A stretch of DNA of 64,000 bases from Podospora anserina (GCA_017654855.1 CM030336.1:4836001-4900000); one strand, 5' to 3'. Positions 8,258-17,529 are shown, counted from the stretch's first letter. The notes: generated by a model not told the origin, from the letters alone. Numbers and translations are program-made.

Positions 8258-9567
8258 TTATATGCGTGCCTGCTTCATGTCTCCACGTATGTCAGCCTTC
8301 AACTTCACCCATGCCTCTCTGTCCTGGACGGCGGTTTTCAAACCCGCCGTGCTCCACCGCGGAGAGTCAATATGCATCCTTATGTGCCCGTTCTTGTATG
8401 CCGTCCACGCCCGAGCAGCCTGGTCCATGCTCCACAGACGGCGCTGCTCTTCACTGCAATGCCTGTGGCATCAACAGTTAGCGCTCTTCTGGCACTTAAT
8501 CACGGGGAATAGACCTACCTAGGATACTCCACAAACGCCCTGTCAGCCTCACGCACAACCTGCACCAACTCATCCATTATCTCGCAGAGACCATCTCGGT
8601 AGGTGTACAGATTCCCATCCTGCCCGAACCGCGACGGCGTCCCAGACTGGCGGCGGACAAGAGTTTGAAGCGTGACGTAGTTGATGTCCATTCCTCCTTC
8701 TGGATTGACAGAGGCCAGTATTTCCTTGGAAAAGGACATAAGATCGTTGACCCGGTCCGTGAACCGTACAAGCGGATTCAGAGCGGGAATCCAGTAGTCG
8801 AACGGCACGCTGTGGAACAGACCAGCGATATACGCCGCTGACGCGCCAGATTGCGCCCGAAGCCAGCGCGGGAATCCAGCAGGGCAACAATGGTGAAAGC
8901 TGTGCTTGCTGGTGGATGGTGGCCTCAGATGCGGCGGCACGTCCCAAATGCTTCCGTTGAATCGTTTCTCGTTCTCCAGCGAAGAGATATAGTTGAACAG
9001 CGCCTCGCCGCCCAAGACCCCTGCGCGTGGATCATTCTCTCCAAAGTGGGCGATGTACTCGCGAACAAGACGGGTGAAGAACCCGAGCCAACCGCTGCGT
9101 TCTGTGGCTGCTTCGCTACCCATCAGGATGTCATACACGTAGCGCCCGAACAGGGGTGCTTCTTCATGGCCGGCGAAATCGTCCAGCACAATGCCAGCCA
9201 CTGACATCCGCGCCAGGTGGGTACGGCTTGTCGAGTCGTGATATGGGTAGAGGTAGTCCGACAAGACAGCGGCAGTGCGTACGGCGGCGTTGACGATCTT
9301 GGTTTTGGAGGGATCGTCACCGCAGAGCGGGAGCACGTGGTCGGCACACCATGCGGTTAGGTCGGAATCGAACTGGGAGTCGTGAGTGCGAGAATCTGAT
9401 GCGTCGAAGCCTAGCTCGTCGAGGCAGTGTGCTGTGAGCACTTCGAGGAGGTGGCGGGCTGTGCCAAGTGCTTCTGGGGAAGCAATCGTGTGCGTCTCGC
9501 CTGGGGCAAAGTCGAAGATGGCGAATTCGGGGCGGGAGAGCAGCTGGACGAAGGTAAACTCGGCCAT
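8258..9567 (-). CDS. Trichodiene-synthase-like class I terpene cyclase (1 intron)
   Basis: Asp-rich LDDFAGHEE, WLRAQSGASAAY, NSE triad NDLMSFSKE and NYV. Intron 8463-8518 (GTAGGT..GCTAAC..CAG) adds an exon ...AYKNGHIRMHIDSPRW...ARI-TAA. ATG at 9567. Confidence 0.8.
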
Positions 9568-10088
9568 TTTGACTGTCAGGCAAGCCAATTATTTGAAAGT
9601 TGATGGATAGGTACAGGTATCCCTTCGGGAGGTAAAATGGGCGGAGTTTAAGAATCATGACTTTTGGACCCCACCCAAGTTCTCCCTCATCCGACCACAT
9701 TTGACCGCTATCCGAAACGAAGACAAAAATGTTGCATGGCTTCGGAGGGAAGGTGGGCTGCACAGATCGGAGTCGAAGAGTGATGAACTTGAGACCATGA
9801 GATGTGAGTGGCTATAGTATCTATCTAGTGTAACCACATCCAAACACTACACCATGCATGTAGTATGCGGGCCGAGCCACATTATCGTCGGATCATTGCA
9901 TCTCTTCCCGCCCGAGTGCCGAAAGGAGTACGTAACCGATCAGACGTACGATGATACGCCTGGCAGGTAGACTCTCACTTCCCGGTTTGCCTAGCCTGAA
10001 CCTGGTTGGGTATGCCAACCCCCCGTACCTGTATGAAGCGATGGCGGTGGCCCAGAATGGATTCAATGGAAACCGCAAGGTAAGGCAC

Positions 10089-13000
10089 CTATTCCAGTGT
10101 CACCACTTCCAACACCCCCACCAACCTCTTCCACACAGCAGCACTCTCCTCATCATCCCCATTTGTCAACGTTCCCCTATTCCCAATCACAACCAATCCC
10201 CTCCTGGCCCTCGTAAGCGCGACATTCAACCTCCTCATATCCGTCAAGAACCCAATATCCCTCTTCTCATTACACCTCACCGTCACAAAAACAACCACGT
10301 CCGCCTCCCTCCCCTGAAAAGCATCAATACTGCTCACCTCCACCAACCCCGACCCCATAACCTGACCCAACACCCGTTTCAGCAAATCAACTTGCTTCGC
10401 ATACGGCGTTAAAACCGCCACAGTCTGGCTGACCCCTTTTTCCCCATCAGCAGCAGTAGCCAAAAGCGTACAAACCCCCAAACAAACCCCCGCCTGCCCT
10501 TTATTTACTTTACTTTTCCCCTCCACCTCCTCCCGATCAGCACACTCAACCCAAACCCCCCTTTTATCCCGCATTGGCCACGAAAACCCCGTCTTTTCCA
10601 ACCCCCTCTCATTGTCCCTCAATCCGGTAATCAACCTCCCTCGGTAAAACTCTGTAGAAGGGAAGTCACATAACGAGCTGTGCATCCGGTACTGCGTGTC
10701 GAGCATCAACCTCCCGAAACCCTCCCCTCTGGAAGAGGTGAACAGCCTCTCAAAAAGGGAACAATCACCCCCCAGAGTCACAACCTCCGGCCTCACGGTC
10801 GGTCTTAGTTGAACGTGATCACCCACCAAAACAGCCCTTTGACACCCCTTTACTAACGGCACGAGGGCGCACCCCTCTGTCTGCTGGGAGGCTTCGTCTA
10901 TGATGACAATATCAAACATTTCATTCCTTAACAGTCCCAAACTTGAGCCTATGCAAGTCGAAAACACGATTTTGGCAGCCTTGACACGTTTTTTGGCTTT
11001 GGTGGTCTCGGCGCGGGAGTGGAGGGTGTTGAGTTCGATTCCGGCCATTGCGTCGAGGGTGTAAGGCGTGACGTCGGGGGAGACTTTACGGATTTCGGTA
11101 GAGATCCGCAAGGGGGGGTGGGTGGGGTTAAGGGAGAGGTACCGCCGGAGAACGTTATCTACCGCGTTGTGGGTTGGGGCTGTGAGGAGGATGCGGGAGT
11201 CAGGGAAGTGGGATTGGAGAGACAGGATGATGGAGAGGATGGTTTCTGTTTTGCCTGTTCCCGGGGGTCCCCAGAGGCATAAAAGGGGAGTGGTGAGGGA
11301 GGTGGAGACGGCGAGGTTCTGGGAGGGGTTGAGATGGGGGTAGGGGCTGACGCTTTCCGGGGGAGGGGGAGAAAAGGGTTGGGATTCAAGGCCGAGGAGG
11401 TAGGGGGATATGGGACAGCACTCGTCTGATTGGGTGGCAAAGAGGAGGATAGCGTCAAGGGTTGTTTTTGCGGTTGTGAAAGGGGTGCAGTAGGTGAGTT
11501 TCCATTGACAGTGGGAATAGTATGGCGGTAAGGGGTGGAAGCACTGGAATTTTGCACGGCCGGGTTCGGATTGGAGGACGAGGGCGTCGATGGAGTAACG
11601 TTTCTCGAGGAGGGAGTTTGCGGGCGCTGAGGCAGCGGTTAAACGGACGTGGGCGGCGTTGTCGAGCCGGGCATTGTCTGAGTCGATGCGGAAGCTTACC
11701 TCGACGACTTGGTAGCCGTCTTCGTCTTTGTCGAGGAGGTGTAACTTGAGGAGGTCTTTTCTTGGCTCTGACTTTTCTGAGGCCTCTCCGATGTGTTCTA
11801 GCGCTGTGGTGATCAAGTTTCGGACAAAGTGGTTGACGGCAGCTGGCCGACCGGGAAGGAGACGCGATGCTTCGGGCTCGAAACACTCGAGTAGAATATC
11901 CATTGCCACTTCTGGTATTCTGACCGTCAATGAGATCAGTCTGACAAGCTCGGCGAACTGGTGCATTGATAAGACTTTGATACGTGAGAGATATGACTTG
12001 AGGGGGGCGACAACGAGTTCTTTGGCATCGTTGGCTGAAAGAATGAACCCGGTGAGGACTTCTTGGGCGTATGCTTCCAAAATGTCTACCAGCTCTTCTG
12101 TCTTCTCGTCAACAGCCTCGATGGGCGGCATCCTGCCAAAGGCAATAGCCAGTGATGGCGCCAGGCGTAGGAAACCAAGCATCACGCGGAGAATATCCGC
12201 CGACGAGACTCTTGTCAGAGGGCTAGGTTCGTTGCTGCTAATGCCCAGCAAGAGATAATCAAAGCACTTGAAGAGAATGAGACTTTGATCCCTGTCCAGC
12301 AACCAGGAAAACAATTCCTCAAACTGCTTCGGCGACGTCAATTCCCTCATCCAAGGCAGCTTTCCATCCTTTGCAATCGCGACAGTAAAGTCCGGCTCAG
12401 AGCCCCAGTCAACATCCTTCAAGGTCGGAATGGTGTATTCTTCCGCCTCCTGGTCAAACAGCGGCAGTGTTGTATCCGTGTCGATATGCTCAAGCCACAA
12501 GTCGAGATTCCTCATTGACTTGACGTCTCTGTTGCTGATAACGTAGACCTCGGCGGCTGTCACTGCATTCCGGTTCACTCTGCCGATATGTCGCTGCAGA
12601 CCCCTGCTGAACTTGTCGAGGGCGATACTGGCACGGAAGTCAACATTGGTTCCGGAGTCGATGGTCGCTTGGCGTTGTCTTCGCTTGTCGCCTTTGTTTT
12701 CTGCGGCCCTGTAGGAGCTGTCGTCCGAGGGGCTGCGGTTGATGAAGATCCAGGTGTTTCCACGCTGGCCTTCAAACAGTTGAAACTGTCTCTCGTCGCA
12801 ATACAGACGGTATGTCATCTTGGTGGGAAGGGTCATACGGCTCTGCCGTTCAGTGCCCTGGGTGTGAGGAAAGGCAAATAACCGCACAGTGTCATCGACA
12901 AGGGAGTCTTGGGATGTCTCAATCTTGCGGGGAACGTAGATGGCTACGGTCAAACGTTCGTCGACTTGGAGGATGATCAGCTTGCGGTGAAATGTTTCCA

Positions 13001-15319
13001 GTGCTTTGCTGGTAGTATCAAGAAATGTCCCCAGACGGTCCCTCGTTGAAGAGTTGTAAATGCACTTCCAGTGGATGCTGTGATGATTGAGTTGGAAACG
13101 GCGAGCAGCATCTTCCGTAATGAGACTCGAGTAGGTCACCGCGTTTCTGACCAAGGCAGGAACTTCTTGTGAGGGTGGCATTTGCTGCAACACCCATGCC
13201 TTCTCATGGTCTGTCAAGACATTAAAGTCAAAGTAGTCCAGAAAGTCTTCCAAATGGGCATTGTTTCTGCGACACCACGTTTGAGTCATGCAAATATACT
13301 CAAACTCCGACATGGCGAGGTTATCTCGGTTGAGGAGCAGCTCCAGAACGTCATGGTCATAACCATCGAAAACATTGCGATGAATCTGAGCTGTGTCCTT
13401 GAGAATAATCTGCTTGGCGGCCTCATGTAAATCATCAAGAATAAACGGTGGCGCATCCCGGGGGGGGTCGGGTGCCTGTTCCAACTTGGGAGGAATTCTG
13501 ATGATGGTCCCGTCCACACACTGAGAGAAAAGCCGGTTCAGCTCCTGACACTCTGGTGCCATGGGCCCCCGAGCACGAGCCCAGGCCAAGTAAAGCTTCT
13601 TGACTCGCCCAAGAGACATGTTGTTGTACTTGGCAAAATAAACAAGCCGGTCGTCGTCGGTGATGGCTTTGAAGCTGATCGCTTCTCTGGCACCTGGATA
13701 CTTGGCGGGTTCCGACATGGTCGAGGGAATCACACTTTTATCCCAGCAGACGAAGACTGTTGTCCCTGTTAGCGTCTCTATAGCAACGTTAAGGGGGGCG
13801 ACTCCACCCAAGAAAACATACAAGTATCACCATCCAAATCACCCCCAGACATCAGATCCGCCGCTGGTCTTCTGCCCCTCGAAGAAAAGACAATGCAATC
13901 CGTCAGATGCGCCAGCTCTGGTCTTTCAACCACTCTAAACTTTTGCATATCTCCCGGGTGTAAACACGGGTTCCTCGTCACCAACACCTCCATCCCTTTC
14001 AGCGCCGCCGGTTGGCCATCCTCGAAAAGGGTGACTTTGACTGCGCATTCTCCCTCCTTGAGACAATCCCAAGCATCACACACCCCAAACAGCAGCCTCG
14101 ACTGCGGGATCAAGATTCGACATTTTTGATCATCTCGTTTGTTCAACATCTTGCCGTATTCTGCCTTGACGAGCGCCTTGACTTTGGATTGGGCGTGCTC
14201 AACGTTGTCTGCCATTAGGATTTTCTCCGCCATTTCAGGCATATTGGCATAAGACAAGAACCTAAACGCAGCTCGGGGGTCTCTGGTAGCTTCTTCGAGA
14301 AACTGGAAATGTTCGTTTTGCTTTTGATGAAAGGTTTTGTGTGTGATGCCAAGGGCGGAGAGAAGGAGGATGGACTCGTCGTTGAGATACCCGTAGGTGT
14401 ATGGTTTGGAGTACTCGACGACAGAAAAGGAGTAATCGTCGCCACCAGAGAACTTCTTCATCGATTTGCGCAGCTTGAGCCAGATCGGAGGGGCGTCGGA
14501 GCTCTTGTTTTTTGGTCGCGGCATGGTCTGATCGACTTCCACAACGCCCTTGTAACCGCGGTAGCGTATTTGGAACACGGACGGGGTGTAGCGTCTATTG
14601 CGAAAGATGATTCGATCACGTCTTGCCAGTTCCCGCGCGAGATTAGGTGAGATGAGGCCGCAGCCGTCGGTAAAGATGTAATCGGCTGTCTCGATATCGG
14701 GGATGTCCTCGACGCGTTCGGGCGGGATGAGCATTGCTACCGATCCGGTAGAGAACAGGAGACTTATACGCTTGGCCTTTTTGGCAACTGTCTTCATTTT
14801 CGAAAAGTCGCCCAAGTCGTTGACCTTACGGGAGATCTCCTCGGGTGAACCGGCATAGAAAAAGCAAGTTCGGGATTTGAGCTGGCTGTTGCTGTGGCCG
14901 TAGAAATTGTAGTGGACACCTTGAATGGAGATGCCGGTCCTGAGGAGTCGAATAGCGTAGTCGGTACATTCTCGGGGCGTGGATGGTTGAAGCGAGTCGT
15001 CTGTGGATGTTGCTGCAGCAGAGCGGGGTGGTCGTCGTCCAGGCGGAGCACGCAGCTCGGCGATAGAGACGACGAGGAACTTGTTGAGTGGCTCGCCGCG
15101 GATAGCTCGATTGTCTTGTGCCTTGACCAGGGTGAAGTTGATTTCGTGCTTGCCACCGGTCATGACCAAGCTCACTGTTTTGATGAGTCGAGCATTGTCG
15201 AGCTTGTCGGGCCCGGGCAGGTTGGGGATGGTGTACCTCCATTCTCGATCATCTAACCTTATCCAGTCCTGGAGTTGGTGTTTGAAGCTTGCAAGTTTGC
15301 CACACATGGCAGTCGACAT
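10089..15319 (-). CDS. Eukaryotic RNA-dependent RNA polymerase fused to a C-terminal Upf1/NAM7-like SF1 helicase (~1720 aa, 1 intron)
   Basis: RdRP motifs: HSNSQLK, FTDGCGLIS, FQIRYRGYKG, LRKSMKKF, RNPCLHPGD, SGGDLDGD. Intron 13757-13821 (GTATGT..GCTAAC..CAG) gives DLDGDTFFVCWD and joins the 1244-aa ORF. That ORF carries the helicase motifs LNPSQ, GPPGTGKT, APTHNAVD, IIDEASQ, GDHVQLRP, SLFERL, QYRMH, TPYAKQ, DAFQGRE and RLNVALTRAR. Start taken at the first ATG (15319). Confidence 0.9.
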
Positions 15320-15683
15320 CCTTGGGAGGGAGATGTAGCGACAACAAGAAAAGAACTGGCGTCTACTGAAGGCAGGTCGAGGGCACAGGTGCTGGGTTTT
15401 GAGGAGGGGCAGGCCACACAAGAGCAACTAAACTGTCGGAGCTGGATCTCGCAGTTGATACGTGCCCGCACCTCCTGCAGCAGGCCTCAGTGCATATCTC
15501 ACCTGACTGGCTCAAAGCGCCGATTTTCGACCATCCCTTACATCAAAGATCATCGAGACGAGTACCTACATCACTTTCAGCTACCAGCCACATCTATCTC
15601 CACGTCGTTCCAGCATCGAAAGCCTGGAAAAAGTCCATCAAGCACAGTCGACTATCTACAGTTGAATTGCGCCCTACCAAACA
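15320..15683. promoter_or_regulatory. Probable bidirectional promoter between RdRP-helicase and P-loop kinase genes
   Basis: Only 364 bp separate the two divergent start codons. No specific element was identified. Confidence 0.4.
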
Positions 15684-16328
15684 ATGTCCCAACCACCAAA
15701 CATCTACATCATCGGCGCTCAATGCACAGGCAAAACAACCCTCGTCAAAAACCTCCACGCCAATTTTGAGTCCAACTCCTCCCATGAACCGCCAGTCCTG
15801 ATCACCGAAGTCGCCCGCACAGTCCTCAAGCAGCATTCCTTCACAGCAGCCGACGTCATCAACCCAGACAGAAGCATCCAGCTCCAAAGCCTGATCCTAC
15901 AAGCACAAGCCTCCACCGAGAGACAAGCCACCCAAACCGGGCAATGGTTCATCTCCGACAGATCAGGAGCCGACCCAATCACCTACGCCTTGCGATATGT
16001 AGAAGAAGGACGAGCCAACCAATTGATCCAGTCGGATGAATGGCGGGAACTGAGAACAAGGATGCAGGACGCGGTTGTGGTTGTCTGTGAAGCTAGCGAA
16101 GAAGCGCGGAGCTGGCTTGCGGATGATGGGGTTAGGTTGATGCCGGAGGATGTGGATGATTGGATTGCCATGCACAGGGTGTTTTGCGAATTCTTGCAAG
16201 ATCAGGAGATAAATTTCCAGGTCTTGCCTGCTTGGGTTGGGGATCATCAGGAGAGGGTTGAGTTTGTGTTGCAATGTTGGGATTGTAAGAAAGAAAGGGG
16301 TCCACGGTGGGTGGTAACTGATTTCTAA
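15684..16328 (+). CDS. AAA_28 (NadR/Ttd14-like) P-loop nucleotide/nucleoside kinase-like protein
   Basis: N-terminal Walker A IYIIGAQCTGKTTL, followed by EVAR, FISDRSGADPITYA (DR motif of NMP/dN-kinase-fold proteins), DDGVR and ERVEFV. Intronless, 214 aa. Confidence 0.8.
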   Translation: MSQPPNIYIIGAQCTGKTTLVKNLHANFESNSSHEPPVLITEVARTVLKQHSFTAADVINPDRSIQLQSLILQAQASTERQATQTGQWFISDRSGADPITYALRYVEEGRANQLIQSDEWRELRTRMQDAVVVVCEASEEARSWLADDGVRLMPEDVDDWIAMHRVFCEFLQDQEINFQVLPAWVGDHQERVEFVLQCWDCKKERGPRWVVTDF

Positions 16329-16350
16329 TGGCGGGTTTATAGAAGGCTAC

Positions 16351-17529
16351 CTATACACCATAGGCAGCGACAAGTCTCGCTCGCTCAGCCGCGGTACTAT
16401 GGCAGTTAGTCGATGTTGGAACGGACTGATCTAGGAATGGGACACTCACATAGGAGTTACGTATCCGTGCCTGGGATTCTTTGGCAGCTTTGCGTTCTTG
16501 ACGACCGTCCACTTGCCCTTGGAAATATCGTTTGTTGTGAATGGAAGGTAGCCGCCGTCACCACGCATGTAGTCGTCGATCCACAGATGCCACTGTCTCA
16601 AAGTTAGTAGAGCCCCCTCTCTGTGCTTCCTCACAGTGACTGACTGACCTTCTTCGGATCCCTGTTATCCCTAAACACCAACGGTCCCTCCCCGGCCGGC
16701 ATGCCTCCATCAGCACCAATCCTTTCGCTAACCGTCTTCCACGGCCCCTCCGGACTGCCCGCCACATTCTGCTGAATCAACTCATCAGGCCCATGCTTAC
16801 TAAACCAGTAGTACTTCCCCGTCTCCCCCTCCAAAGCAATAGTAGCATCCATCCCCAGCCGATTAAACTCCTCCGCCCGTGTAAACGTCTTGAAATCCTC
16901 CGTATGCGCCTTCATAAGCACAAGCTGACTATCCAACTTGCTCGTGAAATAAACCAAGAACTTGTTCTTGACCGGATCCCAAATCGCGTCCGGAGCCCAA
17001 GCCATCGCTGCTTCAGGGGGAGCCACCGTCTTGAACATCGGCCCGGTCCATCTCGCGAGATCGTTTGATTCCCAGACGTGGATAGACTTTGATCCGTTGC
17101 AGGTGTAGCAAGTCCCATTGTTCCAGCCGCGGCCCCAGACTTTGAGGTCTGTGGCGAGGAGCCAAAACTTGGACCGGTCGGGCGCGATGATGAGAGATGG
17201 GTCGCGGATGCCGCCCATGCCGAGGGAGGTGGTTAGGATGGGGTCACCTTTGTTGAGGGTGGTCCAGGTGGTTGGGTCGTTGTTGTTGCTGATGGCCATG
17301 TAGACTTGTTCGCCGTCTGGGAGGCGTTCGCCGGTGAACTGGGTGCTGTAAGCATTCTGGTTAGCTACATGGGGGAGAGGGGGGAGGGGACATAGGTGTA
17401 GAGGTAATCTGTGAAGTTGGTCGCTGGAGCTTGCCGCGCTTCAGGGCTGTGGTGCTGTAGGGCTGACAGTGGTGTGCCCTGTGCTACATGGGCAGCTGCT
17501 AGAATGATGGAGCAGATGATGTGACGCAT
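16351..17529 (-). CDS. Secreted glycoside hydrolase family 43 protein (3 introns)
   Basis: Signal peptide MRHIICSIILAAAHVAQG. Motifs FTGE..GEQVYMAIS, GIRDP, ATDL, WAPD, EGP, WIDD, RHG. Introns 17339-17391 (weak GTCCCC donor), 16593-16648 and 16397-16449. Ends ITAAERARLVAAYGV-TAG. Confidence 0.85.

Follow-up and report, generated by a model that had tools for sequence, protein, structure and literature searches.

The RNA silencing machinery of several eukaryotes pairs an RdRP with a helicase. Nematode EGO-1 cooperates with ZNFX-1, while the S. pombe RDRC (Rdp1, Hrr1 and Cid12) and the Neurospora pair SAD-1 and SAD-3 each partner an RdRP with an SF1 helicase; Hrr1 and SAD-3 are cited as RdRP-cooperating helicases in passages of PMC11237814. 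In amphioxus, BL02069 combines an RdRP with a preserved catalytic site and an AAA_12 domain, and the amphioxus RdRPs, BL02069 included, were speculated to act outside RNAi (Pinzon et al. 2019). The closest described protein is FgRdRp5 of Fusarium graminearum (FGSG_09076). Its C-terminal helicase and AAA domains were described in 2015 (PMC4515635), and a 2024 study characterised a mutant lacking the gene. Passages of that study give Fgrdrp5 a part in ascospore discharge and in Dicer-dependent exonic siRNA biogenesis and accumulation, a phenotype common to Fgrdrp1 and Fgrdrp2, and place it 'in a separate branch' of RdRPs (PMC11237814). It is possibly non-critical for hairpin-RNA silencing (PMC4870495). 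The main-text passages of the two FgRdRp5 papers name the helicase 'DEAD-like/DEXDc', discuss DEAD-box analogies, and contain no mention of a TLDc domain, an AAA_28 neighbour or non-fungal relatives (PMC4515635, PMC11237814).

The gene analysed here lies in a 64,000-nt stretch of Podospora anserina DNA (the window). It occupies 10089-15319 on the minus strand, has a single GT..AG intron and is accompanied by a divergent neighbour. The features of the locus are as follows.

15684..16328, plus strand: divergent neighbour gene, encoding a 214-aa stand-alone AAA_28 (NadR/Ttd14-type P-loop) protein
15320..15683, no strand: 364-bp spacer separating the start codons of the two divergent genes and presumed to act as their common promoter
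13822..15319, minus strand: exon 1 coding sequence, residues 1-499 plus base 1 of codon 500, with the start codon at 15319
13757..13821, minus strand: intron, 65 nt, missing from one contig each of runs X1, X3 and X10, present in X15
10089..13756, minus strand: exon 2 coding sequence, residues 500-1721, stop codon 10089-10091
13440..15115, minus strand: cellular RdRP domain (PF05183), split by the intron, profile positions 16-440 then 442-556 of 582
13826..13840, minus strand: catalytic DLDGD, residues 494-498
12522..13145, minus strand: predicted TLDc-fold domain, about residues 704-911, AF2 model
11775..12392, minus strand: predicted all-helical domain of unassigned kind, about residues 955-1160, AF2 model
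11388..11768, minus strand: predicted Upf1-type 1B beta-barrel and stalk helices, AF2 models and structure alignment
10176..11336, minus strand: SF1B helicase core (RecA1/RecA2; AAA_11 and AAA_12; motifs Q, I-VI)
11247..11270, minus strand: Walker A GPPGTGKT, residues 1329-1336

The coding sequence is divided between two stop-to-stop ORFs on the minus strand, 13778-15427 and 10089-13826. Position 15319 is the first in-frame ATG, and none occurs 5' of it inside the open frame. The junction reads GAT TTG GAT GGT GAT ACT T/GTATGT...GCTAAC...ACAG/TC TTC GTC TGC TGG GAT, in which the intron is bounded by GT..AG ends and contains a CTAAC branch-point-like box. Removal of the 65 nt therefore joins DLDGDT to FFVCWD, and the spliced product is a protein of 1,721 aa with one terminal stop. 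One contig in each of X1, X3 and X10, which are the three probable-RNA runs and come from three studies, skipped 13757-13821 exactly, and the skip reads CT..AC on the plus strand; these runs are represented by contigs rather than reads, and their RNA status ('RNA?') is a guessed label. The spliced contigs reach from 15334-15389 to 10556, 10581 or 11157, so the RdRP and linker are covered, and those of X1 and X3 also take in half of the helicase, its first. Run X15, which is DNA-like, spans the entire stretch and keeps the intron. The initial annotation had proposed a fusion hidden by a 65-nt intron, to be checked by following transcripts through to the helicase; the fusion and the splicing are borne out by the spliced frame, by these contigs and by the Pfam match across the junction.

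The RdRP profile PF05183 runs on across the junction, with the larger segment in exon 1 (E 6.9e-100; 335.8 bits against a cut-off of 23.8) and the remainder at the start of exon 2. The best solved relative of the domain is Arabidopsis RDR2 (E 1.1e-44; 6.9e-99 by profile search). The DLDGD sequence, a DxDGD loop, is nearly invariant among 60 orthologues and is retained in 13 of 14 diverse fused proteins; in the alignment of 16 fused proteins the orthologues give GGDLDGDxFFVCWD as their junction consensus. The RdRP is intact, as was first claimed, with the profile matched along its full length after splicing, and the domain is a predicted RNA-templated polymerase with an intact catalytic loop. 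A Pfam scan that had been suggested as a check matched all three expected families, PF05183, AAA_11 and AAA_12.

The helicase end of the protein was identified by AAA_11 (E 9.8e-40) and AAA_12 (E 1e-50) at the C-terminus. The invariant residues of motifs Q, I, Ia, II, III, IV, V and VI are present in all 16 fused proteins of an alignment (15 orthologues together with the exon-2 product of the window gene), and the Walker A GKT is retained in 14/14 diverse fused proteins. An AF2 model of the helicase (pLDDT 92.6, pTM 0.91) found UPF1 8rd3_A as its best Foldseek structure match (E 2.5e-44, 618 columns), the UPF1 core being matched over about 600-620 columns. The models contain two RecA domains and a 1B beta-barrel on a helical stalk, with matches to UPF1, Sen1, IGHMBP2 and DNA2; the barrel aligns to UPF1 2xzp with Z 10.1 and rmsd 2.5 over 85 residues (model 565-657, chain 324-414). 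A complete Upf1-like SF1B helicase, as originally described, is thus supported by both motifs and model. The stretch between motifs Ia and II appears short by eye as compared to Upf1.

A profile search with the helicase placed Upf1/Nam7 first (E 5e-89), ahead of Sen1, IGHMBP2 and DNA2, with ZNFX1 far back (1e-48). The solved ZNFX1 belongs to the family that includes Hrr1 and SAD-3. Upf1/Nam7 is the best match in both sequence and structure, sharing the 1B barrel, the stalk and all helicase motifs. However, RdRP, TLDc and helical domains stand where the CH zinc-knuckle domain of Upf1 would be, and no Pfam match to the CH (Cys/His) Upf2-binding domain was found in the 1,300 residues N-terminal of the helicase. 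Upf1 proper, the NMD factor, was rejected as an identity for the protein on account of this replacement.

The linker between the two enzymatic parts (AF2 pLDDT 88.4) contains a domain that is called TLDc at the level of its predicted fold. VIA-align matched it to NCOA7 7obp_A (Z 13.3, rmsd 2.8, 152/165 residues), OXR2 (Z 13.2), mEAK7 (Z 12.2) and Skywalker (Z 11.6), Foldseek gave a probability of 1.00 with a TM of about 0.6, and all 30 of its named Atlas feature matches are TLDc. By sequence, Pfam TLDc (PF07534) was matched in 0 of 16 members at E<=1. The all-helical domain that follows gave no usable match from the Atlas, and its last part aligns with the helices preceding the Sen1/SETX 1B barrel (8ram_O, Z 11.4, model 499-678). 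The modelled domain order is therefore RdRP, helical linker, TLDc fold, helical domain and Upf1-type helicase (1B barrel, stalk and two RecA domains). The literature searches returned no mention of a TLDc-fold domain or a Upf1-like 1B barrel in the linker.

Comparison to FgRdRp5 shows that this design was already known. The two proteins are 51% identical over 1,745 columns (residues 11-1721 of the window protein and 9-1706 of FgRdRp5), share the RdRP and AAA_11/AAA_12 architecture, and fall in the same starred clade of the RdRP tree (an 11-row set with 98% SH-aLRT, within a 33-row fungal clade). Colinear along their full length, the window protein and FgRdRp5 are orthologues from different orders of Sordariomycetes. 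The initial annotation had supposed a function not yet characterised, unless the protein proved to be the orthologue of a characterised fused RdRP. It is such an orthologue, and the supposition falls with the published Fgrdrp5 knockout (described in passages of PMC11237814). The great majority among the 120 matches listed are likewise about 1,650-1,800 aa long with PF05183, PF13086 and PF13087.

Fused relatives extend well beyond the ascomycetes, to Basidiomycota (Phellinidium), Glomeromycota (Diversispora), chytrids (Nowakowskiella), sponges (Ephydatia, Oopsacas, Oscarella), a jellyfish (Rhopilema), molluscs (Dreissena, Patella), amphioxus (Branchiostoma), a green alga (Gonium) and a diplonemid (Rhynchopus). 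Domains were verified by Pfam for four of these named proteins, and many of the named genes sit on Mb-scale contigs. Some members depart from the consensus, with an SLGED catalytic loop in Oopsacas and degraded helicase motifs in Patella and Oscarella. Proteins P0237 and P0275 of B. belcheri carry RdRP, AAA_11 and AAA_12 and lie inside the fused clade, but the Branchiostoma RdRP aligns to the window protein in two blocks only, at 29% (RdRP-TLDc part) and 36% (helicase). A split with 100% SH-aLRT divides the 103-row tree into 17 unfused rows and a clade of 86 rows in which all 58 fused rows are found. The family is an old, eukaryote-wide RdRP clade carrying a Upf1-type helicase. This amends the earlier proposal of a separate fungal clade: the separation from QDE-1, SAD-1 and RRP-3 stands, resting on passages of PMC11237814 since our tree was built without these anchors, and the restriction to fungi gives way to animal, green algal and diplonemid members.

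Two readings would deny either the single chain or its age. That the locus makes two separate proteins, through intron retention, an internal start or termination, with the fusion an annotation construct, is extremely improbable. The unspliced frame does end 15 codons past DLDGDT, ORF-style public gene calls split the halves (e.g. P0003, 1,244 aa), and no single contig among the probable-RNA runs spans the whole CDS. However, the spliced contigs of all three RNA-type runs continue 2.6 to 3.2 kb past the junction into the helicase, and a stop after DLDGDT would cost the RdRP domain its last fifth, its Pfam profile being complete only after splicing. Independently annotated orthologues, moreover, have the same order of parts as the spliced product in one chain of about 1,700 aa, with which it is colinear. 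It is also highly improbable that the fusion is recent in filamentous ascomycetes and that the non-fungal matches reflect contamination or horizontal transfer, even though Pinzon et al. note possible horizontal transfer in the metazoan RdRP beta group and many representatives are metagenome or Logan proteins. The named animal, algal and diplonemid genes are carried by long contigs of their hosts (Patella 78 Mb, Dreissena 156 Mb, Ephydatia 8.9 Mb, Branchiostoma 2.4-30 Mb, Gonium 0.66 Mb), and their products are just 25-36% identical to the window protein. Animal, algal and diplonemid members form clades apart from the 33-row fungal clade, and many non-fungal members have a different N-terminus, AAA_28.

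The same AAA_28 domain is encoded by the divergent neighbour, which matches PF13521 over profile positions 2-164 of 164 (E 5.7e-29, 101.9 bits against a cut-off of 27). Across 42 sequences, the G, K and T of its Walker A loop, GxxxxGKT, do not vary. Between the end of the RNA-type contigs of one gene and the start of those of the other lie 150-270 bp, and the spacer may serve as a shared promoter. The two genes adjoin in other Sordariomycetes and Leotiomycetes, as read from tag order and shared contigs. Consecutive locus tags were found in five species (Madurella fahalii 09679/09680, Thermothelomyces fergusii 198/199, Cudoniella acicularis g9546/g9545, Oculimacula yallundae 5358/5359 and Colletotrichum orchidophilum 14095/14096), and in further species both genes are on same-sized contigs, including ones of 9,960, 58,920, 63,226 and 111,482 bp. 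Fused proteins of sponges, a bivalve, a jellyfish and a diplonemid carry AAA_28 as their N-terminal domain. Pfam detected it there in three of five distant fused members scanned, BLASTP of the neighbour against such N-termini gave 29-30% identity (E 6e-12), and a profile from 116 fungal stand-alone AAA_28 proteins matched 22 RdRP proteins of the collected set at their N-termini, with E values as low as 8e-27. Of the 22, nineteen are rows of the tree, all in a 37-row clade with the two placed sponges and the bivalve. Because the same protein forms the N-terminus of the fused polypeptide in these lineages, the neighbour most likely works as the third component of the RdRP–helicase machine, a previously unrecognised partner; no report of the link was met in the literature searches.

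These parts set the system apart from known RdRP–helicase partnerships. In RDRC, SAD-1 with SAD-3 and EGO-1 with ZNFX-1 the partners are separate, whereas in the window protein they are covalently joined. TLDc and AAA_28 are additional parts of the present system, and no Cid12-like or other nucleotidyltransferase part was seen in the fused protein. Upf1, Sen1, IGHMBP2 and DNA2 all match the window helicase far better than does the solved ZNFX1 core, which stands in this comparison for the family of Hrr1 and SAD-3. With Upf1 closest and ZNFX1 distant, the comparison does not point to kinship with the helicases known to partner RdRPs, and the 'RDRC-like' one-chain enzyme of the initial annotation is best read as an analogy. 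Dictyostelium and oomycete RdRPs, which have an N-terminal Dicer-like SF2 helicase, are likewise fusions; the window protein has a C-terminal SF1B Upf1-type helicase instead.

Taken together, we consider it quite probable that the locus encodes one 1,721-aa fused protein, the FgRdRp5 orthologue, with an AAA_28 partner and a mechanism of the following kind. The data show the gene structure, splicing, domains, orthology, distribution and AAA_28 link, whereas the activities, polarity, substrates and siRNA role in P. anserina are inferred. A single mRNA from the two-exon gene gives one protein. Upf1, IGHMBP2 and Sen1 have 5'->3' polarity and cellular RdRPs start at the 3' end. By analogy to these relatives, the helicase would load on single-stranded RNA and travel 5'->3', stripping proteins and structure and carrying the tethered polymerase to the RNA 3' end. 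The RdRP would then turn the RNA into dsRNA, which Dicer would cut into exonic siRNAs, an output proposed because the FgRdRp5 knockout suggests such a role. Alternatively, the helicase may trail the nascent strand and peel it from the template. No enzymatic activity of any fused-family member was found in the literature searched.

It is rather unlikely that the machine instead acts outside classical RNAi, as a Upf1-like surveillance factor or an antiviral or transposon sensor that marks or copies aberrant RNAs, or as a tailing or terminal-transferase enzyme, with the AAA_28 part acting on RNA ends or nucleotides. The nearness of the helicase to Upf1/Nam7 fits such a role, as does the weak resemblance of AAA_28 to the NadR ribosylnicotinamide kinase domain (E 7e-4 to 1.4e-3). 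The discussion of PMC11237814, in part, reports that genes down-regulated specifically in Delta-Fgrdrp5 are enriched in ribosome biogenesis and that a predicted network ties Fgrdrp5 to NAM7 and NMD factors. The family is also kept in animals whose RdRPs Pinzon et al. suggest to function apart from RNAi, which makes it less likely that siRNA production is a general task of the family. However, Fgrdrp5 deletion alters exonic siRNA accumulation (PMC11237814, in part), and TLDc and helices precede the helicase in place of a CH domain or other Upf2-binding part.

With the siRNA-generating fused protein as the preferred reading, a broader view can be offered tentatively: the window may hold the split form of an ancient, eukaryote-wide machine of four parts (AAA_28 kinase-like NTPase, RdRP, TLDc and Upf1-type helicase), possibly about as old as the last ancestor shared by fungi, animals, green algae and diplonemids. 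AAA_28 would be a head-to-head gene in fungi and the N-terminus of a polypeptide of about 1,700-2,000 aa in sponges, bivalve, jellyfish and diplonemid. If so, this family could account for the recurrent pairing of RdRPs with SF1 helicases, and could show the role of RdRP genes in animals without RdRP-dependent siRNA amplification.

The RdRP-helicase gene occupies two overlapping stop-to-stop frames on the minus strand, and a short intron lies where they meet. The features of the gene and its surroundings are as follows.

8518-9588, minus strand: 357-aa open frame downstream of the RdRP-helicase, without a Pfam match at E<=0.001
10089-13826, minus strand: stop-to-stop frame 2, overlapping frame 1 by 49 bases
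13778-15427, minus strand: stop-to-stop frame 1, overlapping frame 2 by 49 bases
13757-13821, minus strand: 65-nt GT..AG intron with a fungal-type CTAAC box, from sequence reading
15684-16328, plus strand: stand-alone AAA_28 P-loop protein of 214 aa (PF13521, E 5.7e-29)
16634-17440, minus strand: frame with a weak GH43 match (29.5 bits, under the 32.2 cut-off)

Read on the minus strand, the intron junction is GGT GAT ACT T/GTATGT...GCTAAC...ACAG/TC TTC GTC TGC TGG GAT, and excision fuses DLDGDT with FFVCWD. Translation from the first ATG in frame, at 15319, gives a spliced product of 1,721 residues with a single terminal stop. The Pfam RdRP profile, PF05183, covers profile positions 16-440 on exon 1 (E 6.9e-100) and resumes at 442-556 within the first 105 residues of exon 2; this continuity across the junction supports the splice. 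AAA_11 (E 9.8e-40) and AAA_12 (E 1e-50) follow close to the C-terminus; the Pfam scan proposed in the initial annotation recovered all three expected families.

Assembled sequencing runs were used to assess removal of the intron. None of the runs is registered as RNA, and the RNA nature of X1, X3, and X10 is a guess. Fourteen runs with transcriptome-sized contig sets contained 47-96% of sampled words; three of these, from three studies (X1, X3, and X10), were examined together with the DNA-like run X15, which contained 100%. One contig in each of X1, X3, and X10 skips exactly 13757-13821, with CT..AC ends on the plus strand, which indicates that the intron is removed. X15 covers 9000-16500 as one piece and has no such skip. 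The skipping contigs run from 15334-15389 down to 10556, 10581, or 11157, so that in X1 and X3 one assembled molecule holds the RdRP, the whole linker between the two enzymes, and the helicase to roughly motif IV. The X10 contig ends just beyond motif I. The 3' end and the final stretch of the helicase are found on additional contigs, and gaps are left at about 10493-10580 in X1 and X3 and about 10306-10616 in X10. In these putative RNA contigs, the gene is expressed as one spliced mRNA. The initial annotation had proposed a single chain hidden by a 65-nt intron, and the splice in all three putative RNA runs, together with the continuous RdRP profile, bears this out.

Some further observations concern the same contigs and the flanking frames. 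The X1 and X3 gap, 10493-10580 on the minus strand, is a G-rich purine tract within the helicase coding region, and the X10 contig breaks bear adapter-like loose ends. One X3 contig skips 53 nt at 16397-16449; its CT..AC ends suggest an intron on the minus strand, in a gene that runs towards the AAA_28 gene. In the 8518-9588 frame, an aspartate-rich LDDF and an NDLMSFSKE recall, by eye, putative terpene cyclase metal-binding motifs.

The two enzymatic parts were compared with proteins of solved structure. For the RdRP part, Arabidopsis RDR2 ranks first among solved relatives (E 1.1e-44), with QDE-1 far weaker (2.2e-14), and a 60-sequence profile gave the same order (6.9e-99 and 1e-26). The C-terminal 470 residues matched Nam7/UPF1 best by sequence (1.5e-57), followed by SMUBP-2 (7.9e-45), SETX/Sen1 (about 1e-38 to 1e-41), and DNA2 (1.4e-35); ZNFX1 (1.9e-23) and Aquarius fell well below these, and the ranking was unchanged in a profile search. 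An alignment of the exon-2 product with 15 orthologues showed invariant residues in motifs Q, I, Ia, II, III, IV, V, and VI, including GPPGTGKT (I), DEASQ (II), QYRMH (IV), and RRxNVxxTR (VI). The AlphaFold model of residues 1150-1721 (pLDDT 92.6, pTM 0.91) matched the UPF1 helicase core over about 600-620 columns (E 2.5e-44), and also matched Sen1 (TM 0.79), IGHMBP2, DNA2, and ZNFX1. Taken together, the motifs, the sequence ranking, and the model match identify a predicted helicase that is complete and of Upf1 type, in agreement with the complete Upf1-like SF1B helicase of the initial annotation. The protein is not Upf1 itself, since it has no CH domain.

The linker comprises 700 residues that are conserved among orthologues, and neither TLDc nor any other Pfam family was found in it by sequence profile. 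Its structural model (pLDDT 88.4, pTM 0.59) has four parts: a helical stretch, a TLDc-like alpha/beta domain, a helical domain with no usable Atlas match, and a Upf1/Sen1-type 1B barrel with stalk (Z 10-11.4). The alpha/beta domain was matched to the TLDc domain of NCOA7 with Z 13.3 and an rmsd of 2.8 A over 152 of 165 residues, and to OXR2 (Z 13.2), mEAK7 (Z 12.2), and Skywalker/TBC1D24 (Z 11.6). Foldseek gave a probability of 1.00 for TLDc at a TM of about 0.6, and a protein-language-model search with the alpha/beta part alone returned TLDc clusters in all 30 named matches (score 0.92). The Pfam TLDc profile matched none of 16 members, and no TLDc chain occurred among the 60 listed of 90 matches in a PDB sequence-profile search. 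Because the similarity is seen by structure and language model and not by the Pfam sequence profile, TLDc is a predicted assignment at the level of fold. The TLDc and helical domains may serve for scaffolding or docking.

Searching with exon 2 brought up 231 proteins. The 120 listed include members from Sordariomycetes, Leotiomycetes, Dothideomycetes, Eurotiomycetes (Chaetothyriales), lichen-forming fungi (Letrouitia, Teloschistes, and others), Ascobolus, and Kalaharituber; most have about 1,650-1,800 aa with PF05183, PF13086, and PF13087, and the nearest named match among them is Triangularia verruculosa (81%). Two longer gene models, P0085 (Epichloe bromicola, 1,924 aa) and P0090 (Kalmusia, 2,011 aa), carry MFS-transporter or short-chain-dehydrogenase Pfam domains beside the RdRP-helicase and are probably merged neighbouring genes.

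In the case of Fusarium graminearum, FGSG_09076 (FgRdRp5) is 51% identical to the window protein from end to end (9-1706 against 11-1721). Earlier literature on this gene includes Chen et al. In Zeng et al. 2024 (PMC11237814), Fgrdrp5 is listed with DEXDc and AAA (PF13087) domains, and on the basis of its deletion it is reported to have roles in ascospore discharge and maturation and in Dicer-dependent exonic siRNA accumulation, these roles being partly common to Fgrdrp1 and Fgrdrp2. The initial annotation had regarded the function as probably not yet characterised; end-to-end orthology to a gene already published and deleted overturns this, and the window gene, in the form first proposed, is simply an orthologue of a fungal gene already in print. 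The same study places Fgrdrp5 "in a separate branch" from QDE-1, SAD-1, and RRP-3, as had been anticipated. Wang et al. 2016 (PMC4870495) put FgRdRp5 nearer Arabidopsis RdRp2 and RdRp6, with which the ranking of RDR2 as best solved relative agrees.

Fused proteins are not confined to fungi. Searching 1.84 billion representatives by HMMER with the RdRP part yielded 3,967 matches, of which the best 150 were returned, and helicases were called with our own RdRP, linker, and helicase profiles built from the orthologue alignment. By these profiles, a helicase is present in 58 of the 103 rows with a near-complete RdRP domain. The fused proteins include fungi outside the Ascomycota (Phellinidium pouzarii, Basidiomycota; Diversispora eburnea, Glomeromycota; Nowakowskiella, a chytrid), sponges (Ephydatia, Oopsacas, Oscarella), other animals (the jellyfish Rhopilema, the molluscs Dreissena and Patella, Branchiostoma), the green alga Gonium pectorale, and the diplonemid Rhynchopus. 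Many of those named sit on Mb-scale contigs, and Pfam confirmed RdRP with AAA_11 and AAA_12 in Ephydatia, Branchiostoma, Rhynchopus, and Gonium. Aligned by BLASTP, the Ephydatia and Branchiostoma proteins match the window protein through the TLDc region, as far as its residues 966 and 904.

In a quick maximum-likelihood tree under LG+G4 (103 rows, 550 columns, SH-aLRT only), a split at 100% SH-aLRT sets 17 rows apart from an 86-row clade. The smaller side has no helicase and short tails, and includes Rhizophagus, Actinomortierella, and one Oscarella protein. All 58 fused rows fall within the larger clade, whose remaining 28 rows are mostly models ending ahead of the expected helicase start. 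The fused RdRP-helicase is old and widespread, and the separate fungal clade suggested initially gives way to one with animal, green algal, and diplonemid members. Pinzon et al. 2019 (PMC6396948) had described amphioxus BL02069 as a full RdRP with a preserved catalytic site and AAA_12, and speculated that its role is unrelated to RNAi.

Of 14 diverse fused proteins, 13 retain the catalytic DLDGD and all retain the GKT of Walker A. Decay in either domain was seen in Oopsacas, where SLGED replaces DLDGD (P0187), and in Patella (P0249) and Oscarella (P0222), where helicase motifs Ia, II, III, and VI are degraded; judged from these motifs, one or the other activity may be gone in some animal copies. 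Inside the fused clade, a four-row group (P0239, P0254, P0223, P0246) has C-terminal tails of 385-880 aa with no detectable helicase, which may have been lost; P0239 and P0246 retain an N-terminal AAA_28 domain. The protein P0151 (Anneissia japonica, 1,730 aa) has tandem RdRP-profile matches at 121-587 and 1063-1367 and no helicase.

The AAA_28 gene lies upstream of and divergent from the RdRP-helicase, with 364 bp between the start codons, and is covered by contigs of the presumed RNA type. The pair was compared across species using the listed exon-2 matches (120 of 231) and AAA_28 matches (120 of 635). Consecutive locus tags were found in Madurella fahalii, Thermothelomyces fergusii, Cudoniella acicularis, Oculimacula yallundae, and Colletotrichum orchidophilum. 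Both genes occur on contigs of identical size in at least 10 further named species and two Logan contigs, a set joined by Zalerion maritima through a separate AAA_28 search. Among the shared contigs are short ones, from Podospora australis (9,960 bp), Staphylotrichum (58,920), Zalerion (63,226), and Triangularia (111,482). The gene pair is kept together across Sordariomycetes and Leotiomycetes.

In distant eukaryotes the two are found in one chain. Pfam placed an N-terminal AAA_28 in three of five distant proteins scanned (Ephydatia 22-194, Rhynchopus 5-182, P0239 5-193), and the window AAA_28 protein is 29-30% identical to these domains (E 6e-12). With phmmer it matched the N-termini of 14 collected proteins, and a 116-sequence profile of fungal stand-alone AAA_28 proteins matched 22 (E down to 8e-27), always at residues 2-214. 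Nineteen of the 22 are tree rows; all lie in a 37-row clade with Ephydatia, Oopsacas, and a bivalve, and none in the fungal or amphioxus clades. Adjacency in fungi and fusion in distant eukaryotes make a Rosetta-stone argument that the AAA_28 protein and the RdRP-helicase are probably functionally linked. A search for longer AAA_28 proteins, by a method requiring shared 5-residue words, found only three in fungi and no RdRP fusions, and tblastn of 69 generic SF1 helicase loci from metagenomes, chosen by helicase motifs only, found no RdRP, middle region, or AAA_28. The only resemblance of the AAA_28 profile, and a weak one (E 7e-4 to 1.4e-3), was to the ribosylnicotinamide-kinase part of NadR; the protein might be a kinase of nucleotides or RNA ends, or else a regulatory NTPase, but these are guesses.

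Helicases of Upf1 type translocate 5'->3' along single strands, stripping off proteins, and cellular RdRPs initiate at or near template 3' ends. Given this polarity and this starting point, a tethered helicase could deliver the polymerase, taking it down an mRNA as far as the 3' end and clearing the path. Alternatively, the helicase could follow the nascent strand and release it. The catalytic signatures of both enzymes are intact under long-term conservation, and loss of the orthologous Fusarium gene lowers exonic siRNAs. We consider the chances about even that the gene acts in dsRNA or siRNA production in this fungus; delivery of the RdRP to the 3' end, in particular, is a tentative proposal that we regard as rather improbable. 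By analogy, the protein would work in the manner of the pairs of RdRP and SF1 helicase known from fission yeast, Neurospora, and nematodes. Among the helicases of solved structure compared, its own sides with Upf1 and not with ZNFX1, so the likeness to those pairs is treated as analogy and not as homology. The initial annotation is borne out on the joining of RdRP and helicase in one chain; for its RDRC-like reading, the helicase kinship seen in this comparison is closer to Upf1 than to ZNFX1.

Only three papers mentioning the RdRP-helicase architecture were found: PMC4515635, PMC11237814, and PMC6396948. A search pairing TLDc or AAA_28 with RNA-dependent RNA polymerase gave nothing relevant by title and abstract. 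RdRP-helicase architectures may also be described by Burroughs, Ando and Aravind in 2014. No account of the family's wide spread, its TLDc domain, or its link to AAA_28 was found in the literature covered, supplements and the 2014 work aside. The fused RdRP-helicase persists in lineages of animals for whose RdRPs no function is known, its TLDc domain is an unexpected part, and its AAA_28 partner is linked to it by genome position and evolution. RdRP, helicase, TLDc, and AAA_28 offer a concrete set of parts for studying how cellular RdRPs are loaded onto templates, and a harmless, tractable fungus such as Podospora would suit such experiments.
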